DNA of 51,385 nucleotides from Candidatus Eiseniibacteriota bacterium (lineage in GTDB: Bacteria; Orphanbacterota; Orphanbacteria; Orphanbacterales; Orphanbacteraceae): NCBI GenBank assembly GCA_043809585.1, contig JBDROZ010000012.1:1-51385 (forward strand). The letters run 5' to 3'. The first letter of the stretch is position 1; the number at the start of each line of letters is the position of its first letter. Shown here piece by piece: positions 6,721 through 51,356 of this stretch. The position numbers and the translations under genes were made by a program. Below the pieces are notes generated by a model, which did no database searches, was not told where the DNA came from, and saw only the letters and a program-made list of their open reading frames with translations.

Positions 6721-6805
6721 GTTCGTAACTCCTTTGAGCCGCTGCGGTTTCCCCTGCGTCTTCGCGTACGGCCCTCTCCGGCTCCCGCCCTCCCCTCTTC
6801 GTTTA

Positions 6806-6982
6806 GAATCGGTTTCACAACCTCCTTCGTCGCGAGATCGAGCGAGAGGTTCGGCGGCAAGGATCAAGGGGGAAAACGCCCGGAGGTGGCCTAAGAAGGC
6901 CATTGAGGACGTTTTTACCCGAGTACGCAGCCGCCGGGCCTTGCAGCCGATCGCAGTAGAATGGAGGTTGTGAAACCGGTTC
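6806..6982 (+). mobile_element. 177 bp TA-flanked structured MITE-like element, copy E1
   Basis: TA|GAATCGGTTTCACAACCTCC...GGAGGTTGTGAAACCGGTTC|TA: 20 bp TIR with 1 mismatch, nested internal stems, alignable end to end with 46647-46823 (minus strand). Confidence 0.85.
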
Positions 6983-7073
6983 TAAGCAAACGGCCCCTTC
7001 CGGTATACTCGAAGGCCGGATGGGGTGAGGACCGGCGGGAGTCCGCCGGCTTTCTGCTGCGAAGGAGAAACGC

Positions 7074-9604: not shown

Positions 9605-9694
9605 GTGGTTTACTCAAGCCACGAATACCTTGGAAATGCGAACAACTTTCAGTCGGCGCCGAACCGACCGTCGGTGCTTCCGAGGAGCCCCCCC

Positions 9695-12600
9695 ATGAAA
9701 CGCTTCCTCATCCTCTCCGTCGTGGTTTCCGTCCTGGGCCCTCTTTCGCCGGTTCCGGCGCTCGCCGTGGAAACCGGACAGATCGCCTTCACCGATTCCT
9801 CGTGGGTTCCGATCGAAATCAGCTATCCCCCCGGGAGTGATTCGGCATTCCTAGAGGTTTGGGACCCGGATCTGAATTTCGATTCGTTTTCCATCGACAG
9901 CGTCTGGATCTGGGTGGGTGCGGAGATCGACTCGGTGGTGGTCGACACGGAGCTCGTGTGGCTGAGGGAGACCGATCTCGCTACGGGGCTTTTCCACGGC
10001 TCCGTCGACTTCGATCCCCAGGCGAGCCGAATCTTGACGGAATTGGAGACCTCCCTGCCTGCCGGCTCGGACAGCGCGAGCGCGGCCATCCGGGAGAAGA
10101 TGATCCGGGATCGACTGCGGGAATTCCGGCGGGAGCGGTCGAAATCCGATCGGGCGCAGGCCTCGTGGGACGGACTCCTGCAGGTGATTCCGGGAGGGTG
10201 GCTCGGAGCCGTCTACTACGACAGCGCCAACGCCACGGGCCTCCTCGACACGATCTTCACGACCGTCACTTACGGCGGATATGCCGGACCCGTTTCCGGG
10301 ACATGGACGGCCGCGGGGAATCCACACATCGTCGTCGGGGATGCATGGGTGATCGAGCCGGACTCGCTCATTATCGAGGAGGGTGTAGAGGTTCGTTTCT
10401 TCGAGGATGTGGTGCTCTTCGACTATGGGGTCATTCGGGCGAGCGGTACGTCTTCGGACAGCGTTCACTTTGGTTTGGACCCGCAGTTCCAGCAAGACCC
10501 ATGGAGGACCTGGGGCGGTCTCTTCGTCGACGGCGGCGTTCTCTCCCTCACTCACGGTTCCTTCTCCCGCGCCTACGAGGGGATCGGCGGCTACCTCGAT
10601 TCGGGATCGGTACGGGTGGACCACTCCCTGATCCTGGAATGTCGATCCCACGGGATCGATTTTGCCGGCTCCGGGTACGTGGAGATCTCGAATTCCGTCA
10701 TCCGGGAAAACGGAACAGGTCCGTACGACGGGGGGGGCGTGGATCTCGACTTGTACGGCGGAGGGTCCTTCCTGGTCTCCGGTTGCCTCATCACCGGGAA
10801 CAGTCGGGGAGTGGGGATCGGCGGCGCCGGCGGGCTCGTCCGCTCCTCCGATATCTCCTCCAATCTGGGGCGGGGCCTCACGATTGAAGACATGAGCCGG
10901 TCCTCACGGGTGGAGAGCACCTCGGTCGTCGGCAACACCGGCTACGGAGTCACCGTCGGATACGCCTACGAGGACAGTGTGACGCCCGTGTTCCGAGGCT
11001 GTGAGTTTCATGGGAACGGCTCGGACACGACGGGCGGCTTCTACGACTTCTCGAACGAGAGCGACTGGGAGGTGGACGCCCGGGAGAACGACTGGGGTCC
11101 CGTCACGACGGCGGAGATGGACTCCGGAGGGAACCCGAAGAACATCACCGCCATCTACGACCAGTACGATGACGGGTGGCGCGGTTTCGTCAACTACGCC
11201 CGCTGGACGGGGGTGGCCGATCCGAGTTACACGGGCGAGATCGCCTTCACCGACGCCGCCGGAGATCCCATCGGCGTCCATTACCCCGTAGGGAGCGACT
11301 CGGCCTTCATCGAGGTGTGGGACCCGGATCTCGACCTCGATTCGCTCGCCCTCGACAGCGTGCTCGTGATCGTCGGCGCGCAACTCGAATCGGTCACGGT
11401 GGACACGGAGCAGGTCTGGCTTCACGAGACGGGCGCCACTTCGGCGGTCTTCCGCGGATCGATCCCGTTCGATCCCCAGGTCTTCAAGTTCCTCGACGAT
11501 CTCCGCCGCGAGCTGCCCGAGGGGGAGGACAGCGCGAGCGTCGCCCTCCGCAGGGAGATGATCCGGGAGCGGGTGGCATCGCTTCGCGAAGGGGACGAAC
11601 GAAAGGGGCTCCGCCTCGATTCCGGGGACGGCCTGCTGCAGGTGATCCCCGGAAACGCGATTGGAACTCTCTACTTCGACGAGTCGGGAGATTGGGGGGA
11701 CAACGTCGACGTCGGGGCCAACGCGTTCTACGGAGGGTACGCCGGGCCGGTTTCCGGCACGTGGACCGCGGCCGGGAACCCGTACGTCGTCGTGGGCGAC
11801 ATCCGGGTGGATTGGGGGGACACCCTCCGGATGGAGAGCGGCGTGGAGGTCCGCCTCGTGGAAGGCGCGTCGGTCCGCGTCTACGGGTTCCTCGACGTGG
11901 CCGGTGCGCCCGGCGACAGCGTCTCCTTCGATTATCACGAAACCTGGGGAGGCTACGACGAGAACTGGGGCGGGATCTACGTGAACAACGGCGGCCTCCG
12001 GATGAGCTACGCCTCGGTGGCCGGCGGATACGTCGGAGCGGACATCTACACCCCCTGGATGGACACGGTGGTGGTGGACCACTCCTTCGTGCGGGACTGT
12101 GCCATCGGAGGGATCTCCCTCTCCGGAAGCGGACTCCTCGCGATCTCGGACTGCCTCTTCGAGGGGAACGGTACCTCCGGGTTCGACAAAGGCCTCTCCC
12201 TGGAGCCGTACGAGGACGGGCGGTTCACCGTGGTCCGGTGCGAGATGATCGGCAATCGCGGGGGGATCGGCGTCAGCGGAGGGGGCGGCGTCATCGACGG
12301 GTGCCTGTCGGCGGGAAACGCCCAGCACGGTCTGACCGTCCAGTACCTGGCGGACTCCCTCCGGGTCACCGCTTCGGAGTTCACGGGGAACGCCGGGCGG
12401 GGCGTGCGTGTGGGCTACGTGGGGTCCGACAGCCTGGCGCCGGTCTTCCGCCTCTGCCGGTTCGCCGACAATGCCGCCATGGACTTCCACAACGCGAGCC
12501 CCCTGGATGTCGACGCCCGGGAGAACGACTGGGGTGACACGACGACGGCCCGGATGAACCTCGGGGGGAATCCGAAGAACATCCCGGCGATTCATGACGA

Positions 12601-15600
12601 ATACGATGACCCCGATCTCGGGTTCGTCAATTACGCCCGTTGGATTGGCGGCCCCGGCGGCGGCCACACCGGCGAGATCGCCTTTACCGACTCCCTCTGG
12701 ATGCCGATCGGGGTCCACTACCCGGCCGGGAGCGAGTCCGCTTTCGTGGAGGTCCGGGATCCCGACCTCGACCTCGACCCGTTCTCCGTCGACAGCGGCT
12801 GGGTCTGGGTCGGCGCCGATCTCGGCGAGGGGGTGGTGGACACGGAGCTCGTCTGGCTCCGGGAGACGAACCTCTCGACCGGCGTCTTCCGCGGCTCGAT
12901 CCCCTTCCAGGTCGTGGCCGCCAAGTTCCTGGAGGATCTGAAGGACTCGTTGCCGCCCGAGACGGACAGCGCGAGCGCCCGGCTCCGGCGTGCCATGGTC
13001 GAAACGCGGATCGAGGCGATCCGGACGAAGTCGTCCGACCTCGCTTTTCGCGTATCGTCGTGGGACGGCTCTCTCGAGGTGATTCCGGGAAACGCGATCG
13101 GGACCGTCTACTTCGACGCGCTCAATGATTGGGGGGTCCCGGACTCGATCGACGCGAACACCTACTACGGCGGCCTAGCCGGTCCCGTCTCCGGCGTCTG
13201 GACGGTGGTAGGGAATCCGCACGTCGCGGTCGGCGACATCTGGGTTCCCGACGGCGCCACCCTCCGCATGGAGCCGGGGGTCGAGGCCTTCTTCGTGGAC
13301 GACGCCTCCCTGATCGCGTACGGCACGCTCGCCGTGGCCGGCGCGGAGGGGGACAGCGTCCGCTTTCGCGGGCACGAGGGCTGGGGATCGGGAGGCAACG
13401 ACTGGTGGGGAGGGGTTTACGTTCCCTACGGGGCGGCGTCGCTCTCCTACGCGTCCCTGGTTGGTGCCGTCGACGGAATCTCGGGATGGGCGGACTCGTC
13501 CGCCCTCTCGCTCGACCACACGTTGATCCGTGGCTGCGGATCGGACGGACTGGACTACTGGGGACACGGTGGCGTGACCATAGACCGGTGCGTCTTCCGT
13601 GAGAACGGATTCGGTTGGTATTCCGGGACCGGCATCAATGTCGGGTCTTACTACTCGGAATCCCTGCGGATTTCGAACACGGAGATCTCCGGAAACCAGG
13701 AGGGAGTTGGGCTATACGGTGCGGGCGGCCAAGTCGAGGCTTGCTCCATCACGGGGAATGCGAGGACGGGACTCCGCATCCAGGACATGAGCCGGTCGAT
13801 CGACGTTACGGGCACGGCGATCACCGGGAACGGGGACGCCGGTGTCTACATGTCCAATGCCTATGTCGACTCGGCGACGGCGGTCTTCCGGAATTGCCAG
13901 ATCCACGACAACGGGGCGGACAGCTCCGCCTGGTACCCGTACGACTTCGTGAACGAATCGTACAAACACATCGACGCGAAAGAGAACTGGTGGGGGGACT
14001 CGACGACGGCGGAGATGAACGCCCTCGGGTACCCGGCGAACATCTCCGTGATCTACGACTCCCTCGATGAATCGTGGCTCGGGTTCGTCGATTACGCCGA
14101 CTGGGTCGGCGCCGTGCCGGATCTGGAGCCTCCAGTGGTCAGCATCGACATCGGTCCCTCGGAGGGGGTCGACACGACGGAGGCGGATCTTTACTTCCAG
14201 TGGTCCGGTCTCGACGACCATACGCCGCCGGAGAGTCTCCTCTACGCCTTCGCCCTCGACTCCTTCCCGCCGGATACGGCCTGGGTCCCGACGACGATCC
14301 ACACATTCATCGGTGTCCCAGAAGGCCGTCACGTCTTCTACCTCCTCGGAAGGGATCTCGCGGGCCGAATCGGGGAGGCGAGTCGGAGCTTCGGCGTGGA
14401 TCTCACGCCGCCGGAGACGGAGGTCTACGCCGGGCCGGGGGAGGGGACCCATCAGGATTCGGCTTCCGCGTCCTTCGCCTGGTACGGATGGGACAACGTC
14501 TCGGAGGGGTGGGAGATCACCTACTCCTTCCGCATGGATGAAGAACCTTGGTCCGTTTTCCTCGATTCGACGGCCGCCTCTTACGGGGGGCTCGCGGAGA
14601 CGACCCACGTGTTCGCGGTCCGGGCGAGAGACAAGGCGGGCCTCTTGGAGGATCCGCCGTCCTCGATGACCTTCACCGTCGACATGACACCACCCGAGAC
14701 CTGGTTCATTTCGGGACCGGAGGACAGTGCCGTTGTGAACGACTCGGTCTTCGCATACGGCTACTCGGGCGCGGACACGTTGACTCTCGTCTCCCACCTG
14801 GAGTATGCGGTCGCCCTGGACACGTTCCCGTTCGGGGAGTTCTCGGGCGACACATCGTTCGTCCTCTGGTATCCCGTCGGCGGTTGGCATACGATCCGCG
14901 TTAAGGCCCGGGACCTCGCGGGGAACGAGGATCCGGCGCCGGCGGTGCGTCACGTCTACGTCGATTATCTTTCGCCCGTCGTAGCTCTTCTCTCCGGTCC
15001 GGATGAAGGCGCCCACATCGCCGAGGACAGCGTCTTCTTCGAATGGAGCGCCACGGATAATTACACGATCGCGGATCTCATCGAATACGCCTATTCAATC
15101 GACCAACTGGATACGACCGCCTTCGGGACCGTTTTGTCCGTTTTCTTGGGCGGCCTCGCGGAGGGGACTCATCGATTCGAGATCTTCGCGAGGGACATGG
15201 CGGGCAATGTGGGGACCCTGCAGCGAAACTTTGTCGTCGATCTCACTCCCCCGGAAACCTGGTTCACGTCGGGGCCGGCGGACAGCGCTGCCATTCATGA
15301 AGCGGATGTCGCGTTCTGCTGGTTCGGGGGCGACAATTCGACGATCTCGGGAGATCTCGAGTTCGCCAGGAGCATCGACGAAGGTCCTTACTCCCCCTTC
15401 TCCGGCGCCACGTGCGATACCCTCGTCGGGCTTTCCCAAGGATGGCATTCGGTCTCCGTGAAATCTCGGGATCTCTCGGGCAGGGAAGACGAATCGCCCG
15501 CGCGGCGGGATTTCTTGGTCGCTCTATTCGACCTGGAAGCGATCGCGCTCGATTTCGCGGACACGGTGTTCACCGGGGAGAACGTCTCTGTCCGCTGGTC

Positions 15601-18600
15601 GGCTCGGAATGGCGGCGGTGCAACGATCGACTGGCCCTGGATCGACGAGGTTTGTCTCTCTCCGGATCCGGCGTACGGAGGTGACACTCTTCTCCATCAG
15701 TCATTTCATTGGGATGCGCTCGAACCGGATTCCGTGTACACCACCGAGGATTCTGTGTCGATCCCCCTCCACCTGACCGAGGGCGACTATTGGGTAATCC
15801 TCGCCGTGGACGCGGGGGACGTGATTCCGGAGTGGGGAGCGGAAGACGACAACGTCATCGTGAGCCCCGGTCCCGTGTCAGTTCGGATCCCCCCTCACGC
15901 GAATTTGGTCGTGGAGAACATCACTCCGCCGGCAGAAGCCTCCTCGGGGCAAGGAGCTTACGTCGAATGGACGGTTCGAAACCTCGGAGACGTGACCGCC
16001 TCCGCCCCGTGGGTCGACCGGGTCTACCTTTCCGACGACGATGCGATCGGCGGCGACATCGCGCTGGCCCCGGACTTCACGTATCCCTACGATCTCGTTC
16101 CATCCGACGCATATACCCATGCCCATCCGGTGGTTTTTCCGGAGGACATCGAAGGGGACTTCTGGATCATCGTGAAGACGGACCTGGGAGACGCCGTCGA
16201 CGAGAACGTGGACGAGGGGGACAACGCGGCTATCTCTTCGGTGTCTTTCCCTATCCACCTGTCGCCGTTTCCCGACCTTCGCGTCGATTCGGTTCTCGTT
16301 CAATCGACCGCTCAATCCGGCTCGCCCCTCGCCGTTCGCTGGGTAGTCTCGAACCACGGAGAGGCTCCTACGAACGCCTCGATCTGGTACGACCGTGCGT
16401 ATCTATCCGCGGACACAACGCTCGGATACGGCGAAGTCTCTCTCGGACAGTTCTCCAATCTCAGCTACTTGAATCCCGGGGAGGGCTACGCCCGGGAGGT
16501 CGAGGTCACGCTTCCGGCAAACATCCAGGGGACCTATTACGTCATCGTCGTGGCGGACTGCCAGAATCACGTCGCGGAGCACCACGGGGAGGGAAACAAC
16601 CAAAGAACGAGCGACCCGTTCGCGGTCGAGTACGTTCCGAGTCCCGCTCCCGATCTCTGGGTACACGACGTTCTGTCTCCCTCCTCGGGTTGGGCGGGAG
16701 AGCCGATACCGGTGAGCTGGACCGTCACGAACATCGGTGACGCCCCCGCGGCAGGAGAGTGGCTCCTCGACTGGGTAATGATCTCCACTGATAGCATTGC
16801 CGAAAGCGGGGACATAGCCCTGGCTTTGTACCCGGAGGGCTATTATGCCGGCGATGATCTCGATCCCGATTCGAGCTACTCCCGCACGAAATCGCCCCGC
16901 CTTCCCAACGACGTTTCCGGTGATTACTACGTTTTCGTCTGGACCGATGTCCGGATGGAGTACGACGACAAGGACTGGGGAAACAACTTCAGCACTCCCC
17001 GGCCGATCACCATCCACGCGCCCTCCCCCCCGGATCTCGTGGCGGATGCGGTAACCGTGAGGGCCGATTCGGCGTACCCGGGAACCGCCGTTCGGGTCGT
17101 CTGGACCGTGACAAACAATGGAGCGGGTCCGAGCGGTGGTTCCGCCTGGCAGGATTGGATCTACATCTCACCGGACGACTCCCTCGACGATTCCGTGGAT
17201 ACACGGATCGCTTGGAGGAGCCACTCCGGCTACCTGAGCGTGGACGGGTCGTACACGGATAGCGCGGTTGTGACTCTTCCCTACGACCAGCCGGGTTCAT
17301 TCTACATCTTCGTTTGCGCCGACGGGGCGGGGCAAGTCGACGAGGGGGACTACGAAGACAACAACTGCGGACGTCCGGTTTTGCCTCTCGTGGTCGACTA
17401 CCCGACTCCCGCGGATCTTCATGTGACCGCCATCTTCTGCCCGGCGGGACTCCATTCCGGAGACACGACCCAAGTCTCTTGGACCGTGGAGAACTCGGGA
17501 CCCGCAGGTACGGTCGTGGCTTCCTGGAGGGACGAGGTATACCTGTCGACGGACACCCTCTTCGAACCGACCGGCGATCTTCTCCTCGCCTCCTACGACC
17601 GGAGCGGGACTCTCGACTCGGGTGCGACCTATGTCGGCGACGCCACTGTCGTTCTCCCGAACGGAGCCGACGGGCCCCGGTATCTCGTCGCAGTTACGGA
17701 TGCGGACGATTATGTCTACGAGGGAGAATGGGAGGAGAACAACGCCTCGACGGAGTCGATCTACGTGACTCTCACGATCCCCCCCGATCTTCGGGTCACG
17801 AGCCTGATCGTCCCCGCCGAGGGGACGTCCGGAGGGTCCATCGGCATTCAGTGGACCGTGACGAACGCGGGTCCAGGCCCCACGCGTTGCGCCTCGTGGA
17901 AGGACCAGGTCTACCTCTCTTCCGACTCGGTTCTCACCGTTCCGGGCGATACTCATTTGGGAACCTTCACCCGCACCGGGACGCTCGGCGCCGGCGCCAC
18001 CTACTACCGGAACCAGAACGTGACCCTCCCCTCCGGCATTTCGGGCACGCGCTACGTCATCGTGCGGGTGGACGCCGCCGACGAGGTCTACGAGCACTCG
18101 AACGAGGGGAACAACGATCGGCCCGCGGCCACTCAGGTGGTGCCGCCACCCCTTCCCGATCTCGAACCGATCGCGTTCCAGGTCGTGTCGAAGAACGCCA
18201 AGCGGGGTACCGCAGGGCTCACCTGGACCGTCCGGAATTCCGGGGCGGGGTACGCCGGCGGCAACTGGCTGGACCGGGTCTACCTTTCTGCGGATGGTAT
18301 CTACGATCCCGGGGCGGACCCGGTGGTCTTGTCGAAGAACCGGATCGGGGGCCTCGGGTCCGGAGGCACGTATGCGGCAAGTGGAACGGCCACGTTCCCG
18401 AACGGGGTCGATGGTACATATCATCTCTTCTTGCGGACCGACGCCCTCGGCGCCGTGTCCGAAACAGACGAGGGAAACAACCGGGACTCGACGCAGATCC
18501 TCATCGAGCTGACGCCTGCGGATCTAGTCGTGATCGACGTGACGGGGCCCGATTCCGTCAACACGGGCCAGCCGGTCACGGTGCAATGGACAGTCCAGAA

Positions 18601-21600
18601 CCAGGGGATCGGCGGCACGGAGGCCTCCGCCTGGTACGACGCCGCTTATCTCTCGAGGGACCAGATCTTGGACGCCACCGACTTCGTTCTCGGCTCCAAG
18701 CAACACAGTGGAATCCTGCCCGCCGAGAGCACCTACACGACGTCTTTGCAGGGAACGATCCCCTCCGGGTACACGGGGACCTACTACCTGTTCGTGAAGA
18801 CCGATAAGAACAACCAAGTCTACGAGCATGGGGGGGAGGGGAATAACTTCTCGTACGATTCGGACGGGCTGGAGGTCGTGATCCCGGCGCCGGCGGATTT
18901 GGTGGTTACATCTGTTGTCGTACCGGATAGTGCCTTTTCAGGAGACTCGATGACGATTTCCTGGACCGTATCCAACACAGGATTGAACAATGCCGTTGGG
19001 CTCTGGTCCGATGGAGTCTATTTGTGTTCAGGTGCAACCTGGAATCCCGGCGATCCCCTGATCGGAATACTAGACTTCAGCGGTACTTTGCCGCCGGGCA
19101 CATCCTACACCAGGAAGATGCTCGTATCACGGGAAAGCTATACCCACGTCCTGGAGGCAAACATGCCGGGAGCCGTTCCCGGAGACTACAAGATTGCTGT
19201 TCGGGCTGATCTTCGAAACGGCATATTCGAATCCGACGAGGAAAACAACGTTGCGGTATCTTCTACTCCCATTTCAGCACTGATATTTGCACTGAGCCCC
19301 GGTGTCCCTCACTTGGCGAGTCTGCGGGAATCAGAAGACGATTACTACCTCATAGATCTCGACGAAGGAGAGGATCTTCGAATCACAGCAGAGGCGGACA
19401 CGCCGAATGGTGTGATCGAGTTTTTCGCTCGGTACTCCGATGTACCTAGCGCCTTCAATTACGACATTCGTTCTGATTCACTGTTCTTCCCGGGCGGTCC
19501 TTTACTTGTGCCAGGCAGAGGTGAAGGTCAGTACTTCTTGATGATTAGGGGTCGGTCTCTCCCCGATGGGGAGACCAATTACGAGGTTCTTGTAGAACGG
19601 CTCGGGTTTTCCCTCGAGTCAGCGAGACCGGAAATCATCGGCAACTCCGGCAGGGCGACATTGAATATCTTCGGCGCCCAATTATACCCCACAACTAACT
19701 TCTTTCTGCAGAATGTTGACGAGGATACCATCTTCGCGGACACGACGTTCTACGTCAATTCGACCCATATGAGAGCCACGTTTAACCTCGGGGGAAAGCA
19801 AATCGGATGGTATGACTTGACGGCCCGTAAGGACACTCAAGAAGTAAGCCTCCTGGGTGCAATTCGAGTAGAAGATGGAGGAGGGCCGGCCCTCAGTCTC
19901 GCGATTAGCGGGCTAACAGCTATGCGGAGGCTTAGTCCCACCGTCTACATAATTACCTATGCGAATGAGGGAAACTCGGATGCCGAGTTTCTCCTCATGG
20001 CCCTCAGAACCCAGACACCTGGGATGCACATCGATTACGTTTGGGATGAAAACGCCAATCAGCTATTCCCGATACCAGATGCGGAAATCGATTCGACTCC
20101 ACAAAACGCCGCCTTCTTTTACGTCGACGTAGTACCGCCCCACACGCAGGGAACAATGTATGCCCAGATTACTGCCGAGGGAGAGAGAGTCCATCCGGCC
20201 TTGGTCGTAGGGGCCTGGGTGTTGAGCGGGATCGCCACAGAGTACCTTTCGGACGTTTTCTGGAAGTCATTCAAGTATTCGTGGTTACCAGCTTGTCCTG
20301 ATGAGACGATTGGATCTGCGTTAATGGACGCGGTTCGCAGGGGATTCTGGGAAGCCAATCAGGAATGGGGTGGGCACTTTGTAAAGAAACCGGCGGGTGC
20401 GCTCATCAAGAAGGTCGTCAAAGCGTCAATAGCAGGGCCGTTCAACATATTTGTGAGCATGGGGCAGAATCTCTATAGCTACTTTGGCGGGCTTCTGGAG
20501 GGAGGTCAGCTGTACCTAGCTGGGGACGATTGCCTTGGGCTGAATCCGAGGCCTCCTGACGCGTCCGGAGATCAAGTGATAATCGTAGTTTCCTCCCGCG
20601 ATCCCAACGAAAAACTCGGGCCCACGCCTCCGGACGAGGATCCGCTGATCTCCGCGTATCAGACAATCCCCTATACGATCTACTTCGAGAACATGGCCGA
20701 TGCGACCGCGCCGGCCCAGCAGGTGGTGATCCGGGACACGATCGACACGGATCTCGACTGGCGCCGGTTCCGCCTGAGTGAGATCGCGTTCGGGGACACG
20801 ACGATCATGGTTCCCCCGAACCGGAGCTACTGGTACACGTCGATGGAGATCGACTCGGGGTATCTGCTGGAGATCGACGCCGGGATCAACGGTTCAACGG
20901 GCGAAGCTCATTGGTTCTTCAATACGATCGATCCGGAAACCGGCCTGCCTCCTCTCGATCCTCTGGCCGGGTTTCTCCCGCCGAACGACAGCACCGGTCG
21001 CGGGGAGGGACATGTCACATTTACCATCCGGCCTGATCCGGAGGCTCCGGCCGGCACCGAGATCAGGAACAAGGCCACGATCGTCTTCGACACGAACGAC
21101 CTGATCGAAACGAACGAAGTCCTGAACGTCCTGCGCGATGCGTTCGCCGACTTGACGGTCGTCTCGGTGAATGTCGAGGTGGGAGACGAGGGTCTCCTCG
21201 AGGGCGAAAATGTCGGGCTCCTCGCCTCCGTCCAAAACACGGGCGAGAACGATGCGCCGAACCCGATCTTCCACTTCTATCACGGGGATCCTTCCTTCGG
21301 GGGTGACCTTGTCGGTGTCGTACAGATCGCTACCGGTCTAGCCGCCGGTCAGCAGAAGCAGATCTCTGTCACCTGGACCCCTCGTCGGGTTCTCGGCGAT
21401 CAGGTTATCCACATCATTGCCGATCCGGACAGCCTGATCGAAGAGGAGGACGAGGCGAACAACAGCCGTGTCCTGACCCTGCCGATCGATCCCCGCACCT
21501 ACACCGCCCACTACTCGGACGGCGTCAACTTGGTGTCGCTCCCCTTGGAGCCGGCAGACTCGCTCTTCGCGGCCGACCTCACCCAGATACTCGGGGCCTC

Positions 21601-22693
21601 GATGGTGGTGCGCCTCGATTCGACGGGGAACTTCGAGCCCTTCATCCCGGCGATCCTGGAAGGGGAGGGGTTCGTGGTCGAGCCTCCCAACGGCTACATC
21701 GCCGAGGTGAGCGGAAGCCCGTCGGTCACCTTCGAGGGGATGACGAACCTCGCCGACGTGACGATCCGCGGGGAGTTGAACTTCCTCGGCCTCCCGCTCG
21801 ATCCGGAAACAACCTACACAGCCCGCGCCTGGTGCGAGGCGACGGGGGCGGGGCGGCTCGTGCGGTATGATCCGGCCGAGGCTCGATTCGAAGCATTCAT
21901 CCCGGGCTTCCACGAGACCGATGGTTACGAGCTCCATGGCGCCGAGGGGTACCTCGCCGTCGCCGACGCGGAGACGACCGTGACCTTCCCTGGGGTCGGA
22001 TGGCTCGGGGAGGGCCCGGCTCCTCCTCTAGCACCGCCGGCCGCGAAGACCGTCGGCGGGTCCACCGCCGCAGCGGCGCCGGAAGCGCTCGTATTCGGAG
22101 TCGCGGGCGATCTCTTCCTCCGGGAGGGCTGGTCCGGGTCGGTGCGGGCCGCCTCGACCTACGAGGTCACCGTGACGAATGCGAGGACCGGCGCCACGGC
22201 CCGCGCTTCGTCAAACGGGGCGACCGGGCAGTACGCCACGGTCTTCGTCGACTTCTCCAACAGCCAGGGAGTGTGGGCCGGAGACGTTCTCGAAATCGAG
22301 ATCCTGGACTCGAAGGGCGGACGACTGGGCGATCCGGTGAGCCGCACCGTGTCGAAGGAAGACATCGCGATCGGCTACGGCCGGGCCGACGTCACCATCG
22401 ACGGGCCGCCGCCAGCGGTCACGAAGCTCCACCCGAACCTCCCGAATCCGTTTAACCCGGTGACGCGGATCCGGTATCAACTCGCGAACCCCGGAAAGGT
22501 GGAGCTGAAGATCTACAACATCTCGGGCCGTCTGGTGAAAACCCTCGTCGACGAACACCAGAAACCGGGATACTTCGAGAAGATCTGGCGGGGGGACAAC
22601 AACGGCGACCGGGACGCGGCCTCCGGAGTCTACTTCGTGAGGCTCGCGGCGCCCGGTTACTCGAGGTCCCAGAAGATGGTCCTGATTCGATGA
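9695..22693 (+). CDS. Giant (~4330 aa) secreted modular protein: 3 beta-helix-containing modules, 5 Ig-like repeats, ~11 CARDB-like repeats, DPNEK domain, C-terminal FlgD-Ig/T9SS-like tail
   Basis: Start MKRFLIL at 9695 after GAGGAG, signal peptide; TG(Q/E)IAFTD repeats near 9773/11231/12668; DxTPPET repeats ~14120-15520; (P/A)DLxV...WTV.N.G...W.D.VYLS.D...E..E.NN repeats ~15530-19270; SRDPNEKLGP; NLPNPFNP.T.I.Y.L...IYNISGRLVKTL...W.G...SGVYF tail. Confidence 0.88.
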   Translation: MKRFLILSVVVSVLGPLSPVPALAVETGQIAFTDSSWVPIEISYPPGSDSAFLEVWDPDLNFDSFSIDSVWIWVGAEIDSVVVDTELVWLRETDLATGLFHGSVDFDPQASRILTELETSLPAGSDSASAAIREKMIRDRLREFRRERSKSDRAQASWDGLLQVIPGGWLGAVYYDSANATGLLDTIFTTVTYGGYAGPVSGTWTAAGNPHIVVGDAWVIEPDSLIIEEGVEVRFFEDVVLFDYGVIRASGTSSDSVHFGLDPQFQQDPWRTWGGLFVDGGVLSLTHGSFSRAYEGIGGYLDSGSVRVDHSLILECRSHGIDFAGSGYVEISNSVIRENGTGPYDGGGVDLDLYGGGSFLVSGCLITGNSRGVGIGGAGGLVRSSDISSNLGRGLTIEDMSRSSRVESTSVVGNTGYGVTVGYAYEDSVTPVFRGCEFHGNGSDTTGGFYDFSNESDWEVDARENDWGPVTTAEMDSGGNPKNITAIYDQYDDGWRGFVNYARWTGVADPSYTGEIAFTDAAGDPIGVHYPVGSDSAFIEVWDPDLDLDSLALDSVLVIVGAQLESVTVDTEQVWLHETGATSAVFRGSIPFDPQVFKFLDDLRRELPEGEDSASVALRREMIRERVASLREGDERKGLRLDSGDGLLQVIPGNAIGTLYFDESGDWGDNVDVGANAFYGGYAGPVSGTWTAAGNPYVVVGDIRVDWGDTLRMESGVEVRLVEGASVRVYGFLDVAGAPGDSVSFDYHETWGGYDENWGGIYVNNGGLRMSYASVAGGYVGADIYTPWMDTVVVDHSFVRDCAIGGISLSGSGLLAISDCLFEGNGTSGFDKGLSLEPYEDGRFTVVRCEMIGNRGGIGVSGGGGVIDGCLSAGNAQHGLTVQYLADSLRVTASEFTGNAGRGVRVGYVGSDSLAPVFRLCRFADNAAMDFHNASPLDVDARENDWGDTTTARMNLGGNPKNIPAIHDEYDDPDLGFVNYARWIGGPGGGHTGEIAFTDSLWMPIGVHYPAGSESAFVEVRDPDLDLDPFSVDSGWVWVGADLGEGVVDTELVWLRETNLSTGVFRGSIPFQVVAAKFLEDLKDSLPPETDSASARLRRAMVETRIEAIRTKSSDLAFRVSSWDGSLEVIPGNAIGTVYFDALNDWGVPDSIDANTYYGGLAGPVSGVWTVVGNPHVAVGDIWVPDGATLRMEPGVEAFFVDDASLIAYGTLAVAGAEGDSVRFRGHEGWGSGGNDWWGGVYVPYGAASLSYASLVGAVDGISGWADSSALSLDHTLIRGCGSDGLDYWGHGGVTIDRCVFRENGFGWYSGTGINVGSYYSESLRISNTEISGNQEGVGLYGAGGQVEACSITGNARTGLRIQDMSRSIDVTGTAITGNGDAGVYMSNAYVDSATAVFRNCQIHDNGADSSAWYPYDFVNESYKHIDAKENWWGDSTTAEMNALGYPANISVIYDSLDESWLGFVDYADWVGAVPDLEPPVVSIDIGPSEGVDTTEADLYFQWSGLDDHTPPESLLYAFALDSFPPDTAWVPTTIHTFIGVPEGRHVFYLLGRDLAGRIGEASRSFGVDLTPPETEVYAGPGEGTHQDSASASFAWYGWDNVSEGWEITYSFRMDEEPWSVFLDSTAASYGGLAETTHVFAVRARDKAGLLEDPPSSMTFTVDMTPPETWFISGPEDSAVVNDSVFAYGYSGADTLTLVSHLEYAVALDTFPFGEFSGDTSFVLWYPVGGWHTIRVKARDLAGNEDPAPAVRHVYVDYLSPVVALLSGPDEGAHIAEDSVFFEWSATDNYTIADLIEYAYSIDQLDTTAFGTVLSVFLGGLAEGTHRFEIFARDMAGNVGTLQRNFVVDLTPPETWFTSGPADSAAIHEADVAFCWFGGDNSTISGDLEFARSIDEGPYSPFSGATCDTLVGLSQGWHSVSVKSRDLSGREDESPARRDFLVALFDLEAIALDFADTVFTGENVSVRWSARNGGGATIDWPWIDEVCLSPDPAYGGDTLLHQSFHWDALEPDSVYTTEDSVSIPLHLTEGDYWVILAVDAGDVIPEWGAEDDNVIVSPGPVSVRIPPHANLVVENITPPAEASSGQGAYVEWTVRNLGDVTASAPWVDRVYLSDDDAIGGDIALAPDFTYPYDLVPSDAYTHAHPVVFPEDIEGDFWIIVKTDLGDAVDENVDEGDNAAISSVSFPIHLSPFPDLRVDSVLVQSTAQSGSPLAVRWVVSNHGEAPTNASIWYDRAYLSADTTLGYGEVSLGQFSNLSYLNPGEGYAREVEVTLPANIQGTYYVIVVADCQNHVAEHHGEGNNQRTSDPFAVEYVPSPAPDLWVHDVLSPSSGWAGEPIPVSWTVTNIGDAPAAGEWLLDWVMISTDSIAESGDIALALYPEGYYAGDDLDPDSSYSRTKSPRLPNDVSGDYYVFVWTDVRMEYDDKDWGNNFSTPRPITIHAPSPPDLVADAVTVRADSAYPGTAVRVVWTVTNNGAGPSGGSAWQDWIYISPDDSLDDSVDTRIAWRSHSGYLSVDGSYTDSAVVTLPYDQPGSFYIFVCADGAGQVDEGDYEDNNCGRPVLPLVVDYPTPADLHVTAIFCPAGLHSGDTTQVSWTVENSGPAGTVVASWRDEVYLSTDTLFEPTGDLLLASYDRSGTLDSGATYVGDATVVLPNGADGPRYLVAVTDADDYVYEGEWEENNASTESIYVTLTIPPDLRVTSLIVPAEGTSGGSIGIQWTVTNAGPGPTRCASWKDQVYLSSDSVLTVPGDTHLGTFTRTGTLGAGATYYRNQNVTLPSGISGTRYVIVRVDAADEVYEHSNEGNNDRPAATQVVPPPLPDLEPIAFQVVSKNAKRGTAGLTWTVRNSGAGYAGGNWLDRVYLSADGIYDPGADPVVLSKNRIGGLGSGGTYAASGTATFPNGVDGTYHLFLRTDALGAVSETDEGNNRDSTQILIELTPADLVVIDVTGPDSVNTGQPVTVQWTVQNQGIGGTEASAWYDAAYLSRDQILDATDFVLGSKQHSGILPAESTYTTSLQGTIPSGYTGTYYLFVKTDKNNQVYEHGGEGNNFSYDSDGLEVVIPAPADLVVTSVVVPDSAFSGDSMTISWTVSNTGLNNAVGLWSDGVYLCSGATWNPGDPLIGILDFSGTLPPGTSYTRKMLVSRESYTHVLEANMPGAVPGDYKIAVRADLRNGIFESDEENNVAVSSTPISALIFALSPGVPHLASLRESEDDYYLIDLDEGEDLRITAEADTPNGVIEFFARYSDVPSAFNYDIRSDSLFFPGGPLLVPGRGEGQYFLMIRGRSLPDGETNYEVLVERLGFSLESARPEIIGNSGRATLNIFGAQLYPTTNFFLQNVDEDTIFADTTFYVNSTHMRATFNLGGKQIGWYDLTARKDTQEVSLLGAIRVEDGGGPALSLAISGLTAMRRLSPTVYIITYANEGNSDAEFLLMALRTQTPGMHIDYVWDENANQLFPIPDAEIDSTPQNAAFFYVDVVPPHTQGTMYAQITAEGERVHPALVVGAWVLSGIATEYLSDVFWKSFKYSWLPACPDETIGSALMDAVRRGFWEANQEWGGHFVKKPAGALIKKVVKASIAGPFNIFVSMGQNLYSYFGGLLEGGQLYLAGDDCLGLNPRPPDASGDQVIIVVSSRDPNEKLGPTPPDEDPLISAYQTIPYTIYFENMADATAPAQQVVIRDTIDTDLDWRRFRLSEIAFGDTTIMVPPNRSYWYTSMEIDSGYLLEIDAGINGSTGEAHWFFNTIDPETGLPPLDPLAGFLPPNDSTGRGEGHVTFTIRPDPEAPAGTEIRNKATIVFDTNDLIETNEVLNVLRDAFADLTVVSVNVEVGDEGLLEGENVGLLASVQNTGENDAPNPIFHFYHGDPSFGGDLVGVVQIATGLAAGQQKQISVTWTPRRVLGDQVIHIIADPDSLIEEEDEANNSRVLTLPIDPRTYTAHYSDGVNLVSLPLEPADSLFAADLTQILGASMVVRLDSTGNFEPFIPAILEGEGFVVEPPNGYIAEVSGSPSVTFEGMTNLADVTIRGELNFLGLPLDPETTYTARAWCEATGAGRLVRYDPAEARFEAFIPGFHETDGYELHGAEGYLAVADAETTVTFPGVGWLGEGPAPPLAPPAAKTVGGSTAAAAPEALVFGVAGDLFLREGWSGSVRAASTYEVTVTNARTGATARASSNGATGQYATVFVDFSNSQGVWAGDVLEIEILDSKGGRLGDPVSRTVSKEDIAIGYGRADVTIDGPPPAVTKLHPNLPNPFNPVTRIRYQLANPGKVELKIYNISGRLVKTLVDEHQKPGYFEKIWRGDNNGDRDAASGVYFVRLAAPGYSRSQKMVLIR

Positions 22694-35336: not shown

Positions 35337-35693
35337 AGTGTCCGTCGCCAGGACTTTCAGCCTCATGAATTGGTGTGCACCTTTTCGGATCGTGACGGGT
35401 AGGAGGAGGTCATCCGTTCCCGTCTCGAGCCCACGATTGTGATGCTCTCGGTTCCGGAGCGTCTGCCTCTTGATCCGCTCTCTGGCCGCCAGGTTCTCTC
35501 TCGCCCGGCCATGGCAGACGCCGGCGGGGGCCAGGTTCCCTGGCCTGGACTACGCACCGATCTCCGTCACGAGGGCTCGGATCGCCCTTTGACTCCGCCG
35601 CGGCCTCTTTCGTGCCTCTTCCCCGCTCCCCGCGGGCGGGCGGCCGCCGGGAAACGCCGGCGGAGGGGGGGCGCCCGTCTGCTCCCATTCCCT

Positions 35694-46072: not shown

Positions 46073-46654
46073 CTACTTCCCCAGCAGCTTCTCATAGACC
46101 TTCTTCGAGTCGGCCCTGACCTTTTCGTGGATGCTCGTGCCGTGGGAGTCGATGGTGACGATCACGGGAAAGTCCTCGACCCGGATCACCCAGAAGGCCT
46201 CGGGCGTGCCGAACTCCTCGAGCTTGTGGACGTCCGTGACCTCCTTGACCGACCGGGCGATGGCGGTGCCGCACCCGCCGACGGCGTGGAAGTAGACGGC
46301 GCCGAACTTCCGGCACGCCTCCTTCGTCATCTCGCCCATGCCCCCCTTGCCGATCACGCCCCTCACGCCGTAGCTCTCGATCACTCTCCCTTGATAGGGC
46401 TCTTCCCTGGCGCTCGTGGTGGGGCCGGCGGCCACGAAGCTCCATCGGTCCCCTTCCTTTTTCACGACCGGGCCGCAGTGGTAGATCACGCCATCCTTCA
46501 GGAGGTGGTTCAGGAAGTCGGGGCGCTCCTCGACCATCAGCTTGTGCCCCGCGTCCCGGGCGGTGACCACCGTGCCGGAGAGAAGGACCGTGTCCCCCGC
46601 CTTCAGCGCCCGAATGTCCTTCTCCGAAATCGGTGTGGTGAGTTTGGAACTCAT
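46073..46654 (-). CDS. Fe-S class I fumarate hydratase / tartrate dehydratase family, beta subunit
   Basis: TARDAGH, IYHCGPV, AGPTTS, GKGGM, FG.PEA; the current start ATG lies inside element E2. Confidence 0.9.
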   Translation of the reverse strand: MSSKLTTPISEKDIRALKAGDTVLLSGTVVTARDAGHKLMVEERPDFLNHLLKDGVIYHCGPVVKKEGDRWSFVAAGPTTSAREEPYQGRVIESYGVRGVIGKGGMGEMTKEACRKFGAVYFHAVGGCGTAIARSVKEVTDVHKLEEFGTPEAFWVIRVEDFPVIVTIDSHGTSIHEKVRADSKKVYEKLLGK

Positions 46655-46823
46655 TTCAAAACCCCTTTCTGCTGTGGCCGGCTGCAGGGACGCCCCGCTT
46701 CGTACTCGGGCGAGAATGTCCTCACCGGCCCATCCAGGGCCGCCTCCGGGCATTCCCGCCCTCGATCCTCGCCGTCCGTCCCTTCGCTCACCCTCGCGAC
46801 GAAAGGGCTATTGAAATGAGTTC
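46647..46823 (-). mobile_element. 177 bp structured MITE-like element, copy E2
   Basis: Minus strand TA|GAACTCATTTCAATAGCCCTTTC...GAAAGGGGTTTTGAAATGAGTTC|CA; colinear with E1. Confidence 0.85.
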
Positions 46824-46830
46824 TAATCAT
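46651..46830 (-). CDS. 59-codon bridging ORF running through E2 from the presumed ancestral beta-subunit start
   Basis: GGAGG-N7-ATG ATT AGA ACT ... TTG AAA TGA, translated by hand with no internal stop; the TGA overlaps the ATG at 46654. Confidence 0.5.
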   Translation of the reverse strand: MIRTHFNSPFVARVSEGTDGEDRGRECPEAALDGPVRTFSPEYEAGRPCSRPQQKGVLK

Positions 46831-47695
46831 GGCGGACCTCCCCGTTGCAGAGAGTCATCGCCTTCCGCCGGCACGCCCAGCACATGTACGAGACGGCGAC
46901 GTAGAAGGTGGCCGGGTGCCGGTGCTGCTTTCCGACGAAGGCGCCGAGAACCGTGGTCTTCCCGCCGAATCCCATGGGGCCGATGCCGAGCTCGTTCAGT
47001 TCCCGGTGGAGCCGCTTTTCGAGGGCGTCGAGTTCGGGGTCCGGGTTCCGCGATCCCAGCTCCCGGAAGAACTGCTCCTTGGAGAGGAGGAAGGAGGTCG
47101 CCCGGTCGCCGCCGATGCCAACGCCGGCGATGCCCGGGGCGCATCCCATCCCCTGGGCTTTGAAGATCGCGTCGAGCACGCACTTTCGGACTCCCTCGAG
47201 GTCCCGGCCCGCGCCGAGCCCGCCGTCGGGGAGCTTGTACTGCGTGCCGACGTTTTCGCTTCCGCCCCCCTTCAGCATCAGCCTGACCTCGATCTCATCC
47301 TTCCGCCACGGCTTGAACGAGACGTAGGGGGCGTTCACGCCGATGTTGGTGCCCGTGTTCTTTCCGGTCACCGGGTCGACCGCGTTCGGGCGGAGGAGGA
47401 TCTCCTTGGTCGCCCTCTCCGCGGCCTTCTCGATCGCCTCCCGGAAGCGGATCGTGTCCGTCCCCACCGGGTGGTGGACGTAGAAGACGAGGGAGCCCGT
47501 GTCCTGGCAGATCGGCGTTCCGTTCTCCCGGGCCATCCGGACGTTGTCGAGAATGGCCCCGAAGGTGTTCGCCGGCGTGCTCCCTTCGGGTTCCCGGTCT
47601 TTCGCCCTCCGAAGCGCCCCCTCCACGTCCGCGGGGAGGTCGGTGGATGCGCTCCGGATCAGTTCGAACAGCCGGTCCACGAGTTTTTCGTTCAT
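46823..47695 (-). CDS. Fe-S class I fumarate hydratase / tartrate dehydratase family, alpha subunit
   Basis: PICQDTG, LRPN, KGGGSEN, GCAP, GIGPMGFGG, HPA, CWACR; start MNEKL after GAGG. Confidence 0.9.
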   Translation of the reverse strand: MNEKLVDRLFELIRSASTDLPADVEGALRRAKDREPEGSTPANTFGAILDNVRMARENGTPICQDTGSLVFYVHHPVGTDTIRFREAIEKAAERATKEILLRPNAVDPVTGKNTGTNIGVNAPYVSFKPWRKDEIEVRLMLKGGGSENVGTQYKLPDGGLGAGRDLEGVRKCVLDAIFKAQGMGCAPGIAGVGIGGDRATSFLLSKEQFFRELGSRNPDPELDALEKRLHRELNELGIGPMGFGGKTTVLGAFVGKQHRHPATFYVAVSYMCWACRRKAMTLCNGEVRHD

Positions 47696-47751
47696 GGTCG
47701 CACCTCGGTGAAGGTGAATAGGATCCCCGTTTCTCGCGATGTCCCTCGACA

Positions 47752-50565: not shown

Positions 50566-50904
50566 ATGAAGAAGAAGTGGAAATGCGGCGTGTGCGGGTA
50601 CATCCACGATGGGGACGAGGCGCCGGCGAAGTGCGTCAAGTGCGGGGCGCCGAAGGAGAAGTTCGTTCTTCTCGACGAGAAGGCGGCGAACCTCGTGGAG
50701 AGATCGCGGCGAACCAATTCCCTCCATGGGCGGCTGCTCGACCTCGCGAGGCAGATCGAACTCGCCTGCAACCAGGGCATCGAGGACGACCTCGACCCGG
50801 GCTGTGTCGACGTGTTCAAGAAGTCCCGGGAGATGAGCTGGCAGATCATGAAGCTCGCCATGGCCGAGATGGCGGGACACGTCTCCAAGGGCAAATGGGG
50901 ATAG
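50566..50904 (+). CDS. Rubredoxin-like domain protein with helical C-terminal extension
   Basis: WKCGVCGYIH...CVKCGAPKEKF. Confidence 0.88.
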   Translation: MKKKWKCGVCGYIHDGDEAPAKCVKCGAPKEKFVLLDEKAANLVERSRRTNSLHGRLLDLARQIELACNQGIEDDLDPGCVDVFKKSREMSWQIMKLAMAEMAGHVSKGKWG

Positions 50905-51104
50905 CCTGGACCATCTAATCCCCATCCGGCGTGAAGAACGGATTCTACGGCGAGGCGGTCCGACCGCGCCGGGGTACCCGTCGGAGCGTAGCGACGGCGG
51001 GTCGGCGCCGGGAGTACCCGGAGCGCGGAAGCGCGGAGGGTGCAAGTCGGCCTCTCGCTGCCTCATCAAAGTTCTCGCGACGGAAGTTCCTTCGCGTCCC
51101 AGGC
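50904..51104 (-). mobile_element. 201 bp structured element, divergent copy E4
   Basis: Ends TA|GCCTGG...CCAGGC|TA; the minus strand shares ccgtcRcgag and cgagaRgccgacttgSac with E3; nested stems. Confidence 0.65.
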
Positions 51105-51128
51105 TATCGACGGAGGCGAATCGGTCTA

Positions 51129-51305
51129 GCCTGGATTATGCATGAATCTCCGTCACGAGGGCTCGGATCGCCTGACGAGAAGCCGACTTGGACGAGCCGC
51201 CACCGGAGGCGTAGTCATGCACTCCGTCGGGGAGGCGGCGACGTAAAGGAGGCTTCGCAGGCGGCGATCCGAGATCGCAGTAGGAGATTTGTGCATAATC
51301 CAGGC
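51129..51305 (+). mobile_element. 177 bp structured MITE-like element, copy E3
   Basis: TA|GCCTGGATTATGCATGAATCTCC...GGAGATTTGTGCATAATCCAGGC|TA: 23 bp TIR fully paired if G-U is allowed; shares GTCRCGAG, CCGGAGGYG and ATCGCAGTAG with E1. Confidence 0.85.
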
Positions 51306-51356
51306 TAGGACTACGGAGAAGATCATCGGGCGTCCGGCCCGGGAAAGGAGTGGGGG

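Follow-up and report, generated by a model that had tools for sequence, protein, structure and literature searches.

TA-flanked, rod-folding miniature elements of a Candidatus Eiseniibacteriota genome: a strand-specific fold that is probably needed for propagation

A 51,385-nt stretch of DNA from Candidatus Eiseniibacteriota (contig JBDROZ010000012.1; this whole stretch is called the window here) carries three elements, E1, E2 and E3, which are probably non-autonomous, structured MITEs (miniature transposable elements with inverted repeats) of about 177 nt that need a strand-specific, rod-shaped fold for propagation and are moved in trans. The window is contig C12 of an assembly (GCA_043809585.1; genome label G000) of 4.24 Mb in 123 contigs with 66.4% GC. 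An initial annotation of the window had described E1–E3 as 177-nt bodies between TA flanks, with CA at one flank of E2, and its coordinates and lengths are correct (Table 1); the deviating E2 flank (46645-46646) reads TG on the plus strand, i.e., CA on the element strand, and is mutated from TA. E1 and E2, which lie on opposite strands, are colinear as described, with 73% identity over 165 nt, and the compensatory stems and linker motifs quoted for them are present. All three elements also pair with themselves end to end, with minimum free energies (MFE; RNAfold, better strand) of −104, −100 and −107 kcal/mol for E1, E2 and E3, respectively, and z scores of −10.5, −8.1 and −9.4 against dinucleotide shuffles.

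A blastn search of the source genome with the four elements annotated in the window (E1–E3 and E4, discussed later) returned 237 loci, and an iterative search yielded 104 internal copies of full length, which measure 178-184 nt with their flanks. At 85% identity these copies form 63 clusters, namely the E1, E2 and E3 subfamilies (16, 14 and 13 copies, respectively), one pair and 59 singletons. The E1 subfamily is young, with at least 16 internal copies of 96-99% identity and more at contig ends, while the E3 subfamily is the most abundant; most single-copy types have TAGCCCG-like tips in common. A covariance model, R1, was built from 43 representatives, as the initial annotation had proposed, and matched the source genome 129 times. 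Because many contig ends fall inside copies, often of E1 or E3 type, the true copy number exceeds the number counted, and multiplication within the genome has produced about 130-200 copies. Longer variants of 247 and ~299 nt retain the rod, with one or two small hairpin repeats of a different kind nested in their apical loop, of which one has its own CCGTCGCGA motif.

The consensus structure is a rod that consists of a ~23-bp terminal stem, an asymmetric internal loop in which CGUC(R)CGAGG (5') is set against CCGCAGYAG (3'), a series of short helices with conserved purine-rich loops between them, and an apical hairpin. Compensatory (double) changes were present in 53 of the 57 predicted pairs among the 43 representatives, and all nine helices contribute to the covariation, bearing out the covarying stems of the initial annotation. 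Paired cells amounted to 90.7%, compared with 65.4% after shuffling (a value that none of 500 shuffles raised to the observed one) and 35-43% when the partner column was slid, and the covariation score was 0.688 as opposed to 0.22 in shuffled alignments; these controls overstate the effect somewhat, because the structure comes from these same sequences, which are related to one another, yet the margin is still very large. The covariation is real and far beyond chance. The same structure was found in 28 foreign copies from nine other genomes (91.2% paired versus 57.2% shuffled, in an alignment that was fitted to the R1 model), all 28 of which are 179-186 nt long. No known RNA family accounts for the rod in the comparison with Rfam that the initial annotation had proposed: Rfam 15 gave no match at the gathering score in the window and, at E values up to 10, only chance-level matches on the elements. 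The same scan contained no match to a self-cleaving ribozyme beyond a single Hammerhead_II match at E 4.3, and the element has no conserved promoter.

The fold is a property of one strand. The strand that reads CGTCGCGAG...CGCAGTAG was more stable than its complement in 103 of 104 copies (mean MFE −110.7 versus −98.0 kcal/mol), and with DNA parameters the same strand was the more stable in all three window copies. Among paired columns we counted 184 G.T combinations and 41 A.C combinations; as A.C is a wobble on the opposite strand, the excess of G.T marks a constraint on one strand. Further, one apical pair is a conserved G.U, present in 27 of the 43 local copies and in 18 of the 28 foreign ones. 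Such asymmetry would not be expected from a double-stranded or cruciform form, and the one-strand constraint points to a single-stranded form.

We compared (i) the changes common to at least two copies of the E1, E2 and E3 subfamilies with (ii) the changes private to one copy. Of the former, 122 keep pairing and 45 break it; of the latter, 52 keep pairing and 74 break it (odds ratio 3.9, Fisher p 5e-8). Private changes strike paired and unpaired positions alike (126 of 6224 and 44 of 2270 site-copies, roughly 2% each). Shared changes represent lineages that transposed further, whereas private changes mostly break pairs, indicating that the fold is filtered at propagation and is not maintained in copies at rest. 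This result argues for a role of the fold in transposition, and a host function of individual copies is disfavoured.

The mobility of the family is evident from its insertion sites. The E2 site is empty in all six relatives that have the fumarate hydratase subunit genes, which overlap there as ATGATTAG or ATGATTAA; the filled site reads ATGATTA[E2]CAAACTC, with one TA per side, the right one since mutated. Upon insertion of E2, which split the fumarate hydratase locus (46073-48088, minus strand), the upstream subunit gene came to stop at a TAG formed by the flank TA and the first G of the element. The downstream gene starts within the element itself (Table 1): a purine-rich AAGGGG (46662-46667) lies 7 nt upstream of the ATG that E2 supplies, and the proteins of relatives align from residue 4. 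A second empty site, GACATC-TA-GAAG, was found in a sister species of a genome that carries the element there, so that the empty TA sites whose existence the initial annotation had made a matter for comparison with relatives are on record for both cases. The source genome also contains near-identical dispersed copies, and adjacent (tandem) elements have one TA in common. Of the 104 copies, 44 have TA on both sides, as do most members of the three young subfamilies, where the left TA comes after a C in 34 of 50 cases and the right TA before a G in 32 of 50; by comparison, CTAG makes up 1.8%, and all YTAR 5.3%, of the 54,996 TA sites of the genome. E1–E3 are mobile DNA that inserts at TA, preferably inside YTAR/CTAG. 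The flanks at the E2 site fit equally well a TA duplication and insertion 3' of a TA by an element that ends in TA, the resulting sequences being identical.

At one locus (L042:1380-1760 in genome G007, compared with L235 in G004), five extra bases lie beside an element, such that TA-GGC-TA stands in place of the single TA of the empty allele, which resembles a Tc1-type excision footprint. Neither TA-GGC-TA nor TA-GCC-TA is enriched in the source genome (16 sites). The Logan contigs of three DNA runs contained no joint that skips an element, only short pieces, and had higher summed depth over the elements.

Gene context and orientation were assigned with a crude open reading frame (ORF) caller based on GC content at third codon positions (GC3): 96 of the 104 copies are intergenic, gaps between convergent genes are enriched (26 of 86, compared with 350 of 2348 in the background, p 4e-4), and in gaps flanked by genes of the same direction the well-folding strand runs antisense to transcription 36 times out of 50 (p 0.003). 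In 42 of 66 copies (p 0.036) the sense strand of the element coincided with the C-rich strand, a bias that is weaker than the one against gene direction and inseparable from it. E2 lies in sense orientation within the fumarate hydratase operon. Insertions would be tolerated because their sites are intergenic, frequently at the TA of a stop codon; E2 even provides a new start codon. Insertions on stop-codon TAs seem common in the source genome, which has 66% GC and in which YTAR is rare.

The family extends far beyond one genome. Among ten genomes of the phylum, six contained R1 matches (129, 76, 57, 38, 31 and 2 copies) and four contained none; among 142 genomes of other families, seven were positive, the richest having at least 16 copies, and all matches were full length. 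A degenerate pattern that combines the apical hairpin and the 3' junction retrieved at least 119 stretches from records labelled as at least ten phyla, the labels among the matches listed including Omnitrophota, Deltaproteobacteria, Nitrospirota/Nitrospira, Fibrobacterota, Acidobacteriota, several Gammaproteobacteria, Actinomycetota, Anaerolineales, Pirellulales and others. In most of 20 loci searched from these pattern matches, R1 confirmed full-length elements of ~182 nt. Copies of 94-96% identity occur in metagenome-assembled genomes (MAGs) labelled Deltaproteobacteria, Anaerolineales and Desulfobacteraceae, reflecting either transfer between phyla or binning error. Viral contigs yielded a single stretch, and we found no description of this element family in the open-access literature.

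The end types recur along with the fold: that of E1 in genome G016, that of E2 in Omnitrophota, and that of E3 in genomes G117 and G152 and in records labelled Lysobacterales, Fibrobacterota and Nitrospira. The initial annotation had proposed that structure, loop motifs and length are conserved rather than the sequence of the terminal inverted repeat. The stems do covary, in keeping with that proposal, but the recurrence of each of the three end types in other phyla does not agree with it. In a plasmid collection, neither the full E1 nor a low-GC copy had a match, and searches with 47-nt ends gave chance-level matches with the exception of one related element of 168 nt. This CTAG-flanked relative, on a Pseudomonas plasmid (L241:2500-2670), has the same terminal repeat type and the junction motifs TCGTAGCGAGG and CCGCAGTAGG around an unrelated interior, and was not detected by R1; the ends and junctions may constitute a transferable module.

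We searched for the enzyme that mobilises the elements. The initial annotation had suggested looking for long copies around an ORF; none was found in the source genome. Motif pairs with complementary arms no more than 6 kb apart comprised only variants of 192-372 nt and two spurious pairs, and searches with the end types returned elements, variants and contig ends only. Of the two spurious pairs, that on C35 encloses genes for an adenosine deaminase, a B12-binding MerR-type regulator and an NmrA/DUF2867 protein, and that on C119 is made of two distinct E1 copies with ordinary genes and an unrelated insertion sequence (IS) between them. The multi-copy proteins of the source genome were housekeeping duplicates, with no transposases among them. 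No IS found in this genome has ends matching the elements, a match that the initial annotation had taken as the mark of ordinary MITE subfamilies: the three IS630-type genes have ends unrelated to the elements, as have the DDE_Tnp_1 copies. An IS5/IS427-type mobiliser was likewise not supported (PF13586 in none of nine genomes, PF13340 in none of five, and PF01609 in one of five, with unrelated ends). When seven IS630-type and seven Y1 proteins were compared by tblastn with 120 element loci of other phyla (827 kb) and with the window, no match was obtained; the recurrent neighbours at those 120 loci are housekeeping genes (two-component, ABC, GTPase, enolase and dehydrogenase genes).

DDE_3, the IS630 domain, was not found in seven of the 12 element-bearing genomes tested (G003, G005, G007, G156, G117, G152 and G016). 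In a sample of 151 genomes, Y1_Tnp was present in all 13 element-bearing genomes and in 85 of the 138 others (Fisher p 0.004, with kin that are not independent), and in the taxonomic family of the window it occurs in six of six element-bearing and none of three element-free genomes. The Y1 genes are flanked by different repeats of their own, which in G000 are of GGGGACAC type and in G003 represent a different hairpin, and neither element-like junction motifs nor R1 matches were found around them. A RAYT-like Y1 gene of the source genome (L227, C51:14169-17495) is flanked by GGGGACACAATACC-type repeats that fit the GGGGWSAS motif, and a repeat of the same GGGGACACAATACC type adjoins an IS630 copy on C122 (L063:1000-1060). 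Locus L067 (C38:1-2812) contains a further IS630-type element with two overlapping ORFs around an A-run, likely a frameshift, followed by two tRNA genes and then by a single-copy family member at 1751-1931.

Several points weigh against the conclusion that E1–E3 depend on a strand-specific rod. A plain double-strand IS630 reaction gives exactly the TA flanks and the CTAG preference without folding; palindrome covariation could arise through arm-to-arm correction instead of selection; and the conservation of end types across phyla suggests sequence-specific recognition. The context and orientation statistics inherit the crudeness of the ORF caller, and errors of MAG binning could imitate transfer between phyla. 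Finally, no enzyme is tied to the elements: no copy in the source genome was found to enclose an ORF, although breaks of the assemblies at repeats could hide one, DDE_3 was found in only five of the 12 element-bearing genomes tested, and the IS630 copies in G000, G008, G080 and G043 have ends unlike those of the resident elements.

A TA-specific, IS630/Tc1-like transposase is what the target signature suggests, and the signature and the conserved end types together favour a conventional enzyme. If so, E1–E3 would be ordinary IS630/Tc1-mariner-derived MITE subfamilies whose terminal repeats are bound in double-stranded form by a TA-specific DDE enzyme, the rod and its covariation being by-products of palindromic origin and of several cognate transposases. 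TA on both sides, empty sites with a single TA, the strong CTAG/YTAR preference, the three IS630-type genes of the source genome and the spread of the end types across phyla would all fit, and duplication of TA is documented for ISY100 and the IS630 family (PMC2170065). We nevertheless consider this explanation unlikely, if the least unlikely of the alternatives: it does not predict 22 of 23 compensatory terminal pairs, a wobble ratio of 184:41, conserved asymmetric loops or a length fixed across phyla, and the unrelated ends of the IS630 copies in four genomes, the seven genomes in which DDE_3 was not found and the 827 kb around 120 elements without an IS630-type match are at odds with it. 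Strand asymmetry and ends that covary speak, by contrast, for a single-strand enzyme that recognises hairpins; with the conserved asymmetric loop, they favour a step in which shape is read on a single strand. Under a REPIN-like alternative, the rod would serve as single-stranded DNA for a Y1/HUH tyrosine transposase (RAYT, TIRYT or IS200-like) that inserts it 3' of a TA, the element carrying a terminal TA with no true duplication. The wobble-tolerant constraint on one strand and the association of Y1_Tnp with element-bearing genomes agree with this proposal, as does the conservation of length and hairpin capacity through compensatory changes, a feature of REPINs according to PMC3116915; the CGTC and GTAG of the junction loop, which PMC3733652 gives as the tags of two REP superfamilies, are a lead and not a finding. 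Against it stand Y1 genes that have other flanking repeats and no element-like junction motifs, the absence of a Y1 match within the 827 kb around 120 elements, the general frequency of Y1_Tnp (98 of 151 genomes), and an element that is not a symmetric REP doublet. RAYTs are not known to target CTAG/TA, and we regard the REPIN-like explanation as rather doubtful.

That the functional form is a structured RNA, whether a mobile RNA copied back to DNA or a cis-regulatory or stabilising RNA used by the host and spread by transposition, appears improbable and is the least likely of the IS630-like, single-strand shape-reading and RNA explanations. A structured RNA would classically show covariation, G.U pairs and a conserved G.U, E2 is presumably co-transcribed in sense orientation inside its operon, and MITEs such as bcr1 are transcribed, with an RNA structure kept by compensatory change, according to the review PMC3184786. 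By contrast, the well-folding strand is mostly antisense in same-direction gaps, private mutations break pairs at the neutral rate and resting copies are thus not maintained, neither a conserved promoter nor a convincing self-cleaving ribozyme accompanies the element, and TA-flanked insertion is typical of DNA transposition. Returning to the reading of E1–E3 as structured MITEs, we postulate that the fold is among the requirements of the transposition machinery, which would read it on one strand only. This strand would most likely be DNA that transposition exposes or excises, and less likely RNA, and the enzyme would act in trans. A bolder version, which we offer tentatively, is that these are pan-bacterial miniature elements recognised by the shape of a single-stranded 180-nt rod and not by the sequence of the ends, in which a terminal stem of fixed length would be a ruler between the conserved CGUC/GUAG loop and TA cleavage, and which would be moved, and spread between phyla, by an enzyme or mechanism not yet linked to such transposition. 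The initial annotation had suggested a mobile structured RNA or single-stranded DNA recognised by shape; mobility, the conservation of length, fold and loop motifs, and the one-strand constraint agree with this, whereas the ends are not arbitrary and TA/CTAG is the target of ordinary IS630-type transposition.

The elements share features with several known systems. IS630 itself reportedly prefers CTAG, a preference named in the title of Tenzen and Ohtsubo (1991), and RUP, with IS630-Spn1, is an IS630-related bacterial MITE; ERIC, Correia and RUP are hairpin repeats in which length and pairing are conserved through compensatory change. With the MITE class the present elements have in common a length of 177 nt (<400 bp), the lack of a transposase gene, paired 23-bp ends, a TA repeat and presence/absence polymorphism; a cognate autonomous IS with the same ends was not found in the source genome. 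Like the MITEs of IS630/Tc1-mariner elements, they are small, gene-less and hairpin-forming, with TA flanks, a CTAG preference and many dispersed intergenic copies; unlike them, they have no co-resident IS630 with matching ends, their stems covary rather than being conserved, the asymmetric loops and the ~182-nt length are kept across phyla, and the fold is strand-specific. Integron attC sites are recognised by their fold rather than their sequence, on one strand and with conserved unpaired features, as the present elements would be, and lie in cassette arrays beside an integrase, whereas the elements described here are dispersed, TA-flanked and self-multiplying. The flanks are compatible with insertion 3' of TA, as for PATEs derived from IS200/IS605, yet the element has full-length terminal pairing.

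The label of an undescribed system, for which the initial annotation had named the family its best candidate, is too strong in light of two precedents: REPINs, whose length and hairpin pairing are conserved through compensatory change (PMC3116915), and bcr1 and other MITEs, which are transcribed and keep a hairpin structure by the same means (PMC3184786). GTAG and CGTC tags define two superfamilies of REPs, and GGGGWSAS repeats flank 'TIRYT' genes (PMC3733652). The elements resemble REPIN/RAYT systems and GTAG/CGTC REPs with TIRYTs in that length and pairing are conserved over spacer sequence, in a presumed single-stranded substrate, in GTAG and CGTC, and perhaps in the presence of Y1 genes in every element-bearing genome tested, although such genes also occur in many element-free ones; they differ in being 177 nt long with TA flanks and CTAG targeting rather than a symmetric doublet of 20-40-nt REPs, in an asymmetric junction with CGTC 5' and GTAG 3' on one strand, and in that the Y1 genes are flanked by repeats other than these elements. 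ERIC/IRU, Correia (NEMIS), YPAL and bcr1 are MITEs of 100-170 nt with long RNA or DNA stem-loops, flanked by TA or short repeats, several without a known transposase, and the likeness to them is one of architecture (PMC3184786). These are confined to one genus or family and conserved in sequence, whereas the present family spans many phyla and has 63 types in one genome with a common loop architecture. A structured MITE superfamily, for which no mobiliser was found, fits better as a name.

What is unusual here is one fixed architecture across phyla, the number of sequence types per genome, and the lack of a matching transposase. If the fold is the substrate, the family would be a large natural data set on how a transposition enzyme reads nucleic-acid shape, and would join integron attC sites and REPINs as an example of DNA recognised by its structure. 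The elements also have practical consequences, as they break short-read assemblies (many of the 123 contigs end inside a copy), rewrite gene boundaries (stop codons are formed with their TA, and a start codon comes from E2) and could be mis-annotated as small RNAs. R1 allows them to be masked and tracked, including in apparent transfers between phyla.

Table 1. Coordinates of the elements and their parts in the window and of nested-hairpin variants elsewhere in the source genome
Feature	Coordinates	Strand	Remarks
E1, full element with two TA flanks	6804..6984	+	R1 score 111.7 bits
E1 body, 177 nt	6806-6982	+	between TA flanks
E1 P1 5' arm (terminal stem, 23 nt)	6806..6828	+	partner 6960-6982; helix 1 compensatory in 22/23 pairs
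E1 5' junction motif TTCGTCGCGAG	6826..6836	+	family consensus YYCGTNRCGAG; inner foot of P1; GTC unpaired
E1 apical hairpin	6886..6905	+	helix 9 of covariance model
E1 3' junction motif CGCAGTAGAA	6952..6961	+	opposite 5' junction across asymmetric internal loop; conserved
E1 P1 3' arm (terminal stem)	6960..6982	+	partner 6806-6828
E3-type element, 5' end only, truncated	35543..35586	+	44 nt, 89% identical
E2, full element	46645..46825	-	body 46647-46823, 177 nt; at fumarate hydratase subunit gene junction
ATG inside E2 terminal repeat	46652..46654	-	starts downstream subunit gene 46073-46654
E4, degenerate rearranged relative	50902..51106	-	body 50904-51104; E3-type outer repeat and 5' junction motif on minus strand
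E3, full element with TA flanks inside CTAG	51127..51307	+	body 51129-51305, 177 nt; 161.9 bits
Nested-hairpin variants	C58:39933-40230, C6:26851-27149, C22:13797-14043		source genome contigs

E4, which the initial annotation had counted as a sibling rod, proved to be only a degenerate relative. Its fold is no better than chance (z −1.6 and −0.5) and not rod-shaped, R1 has no match there, and its interior is a module of ~100 nt with at least 14 occurrences in the genome; the outer repeat and the 5' junction motif are all that it has in common with the family. The truncated E3-type 5' end at 35543-35586 (Table 1), on the other hand, had escaped the initial annotation. An ORF at 50566-50904 ends in a TAG stop codon (50902-50904) made up of the E4 flank TA and the first base of E4.

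Two further observations concern the source genome and the window. The genome contains 19 pairs or triples of housekeeping proteins that are at least 80% identical, RecA, biotin carboxylase and YebC among them (C110/C23, C104/C77 and others), which points to a degree of strain heterogeneity or to duplicated contigs. In the window, an ORF of 4362 codons at 9605-22693, with internal tandem repeats of ~1.45 kb that are 63-75% identical (repeat families D1-D3), appears to encode a giant repeat protein.

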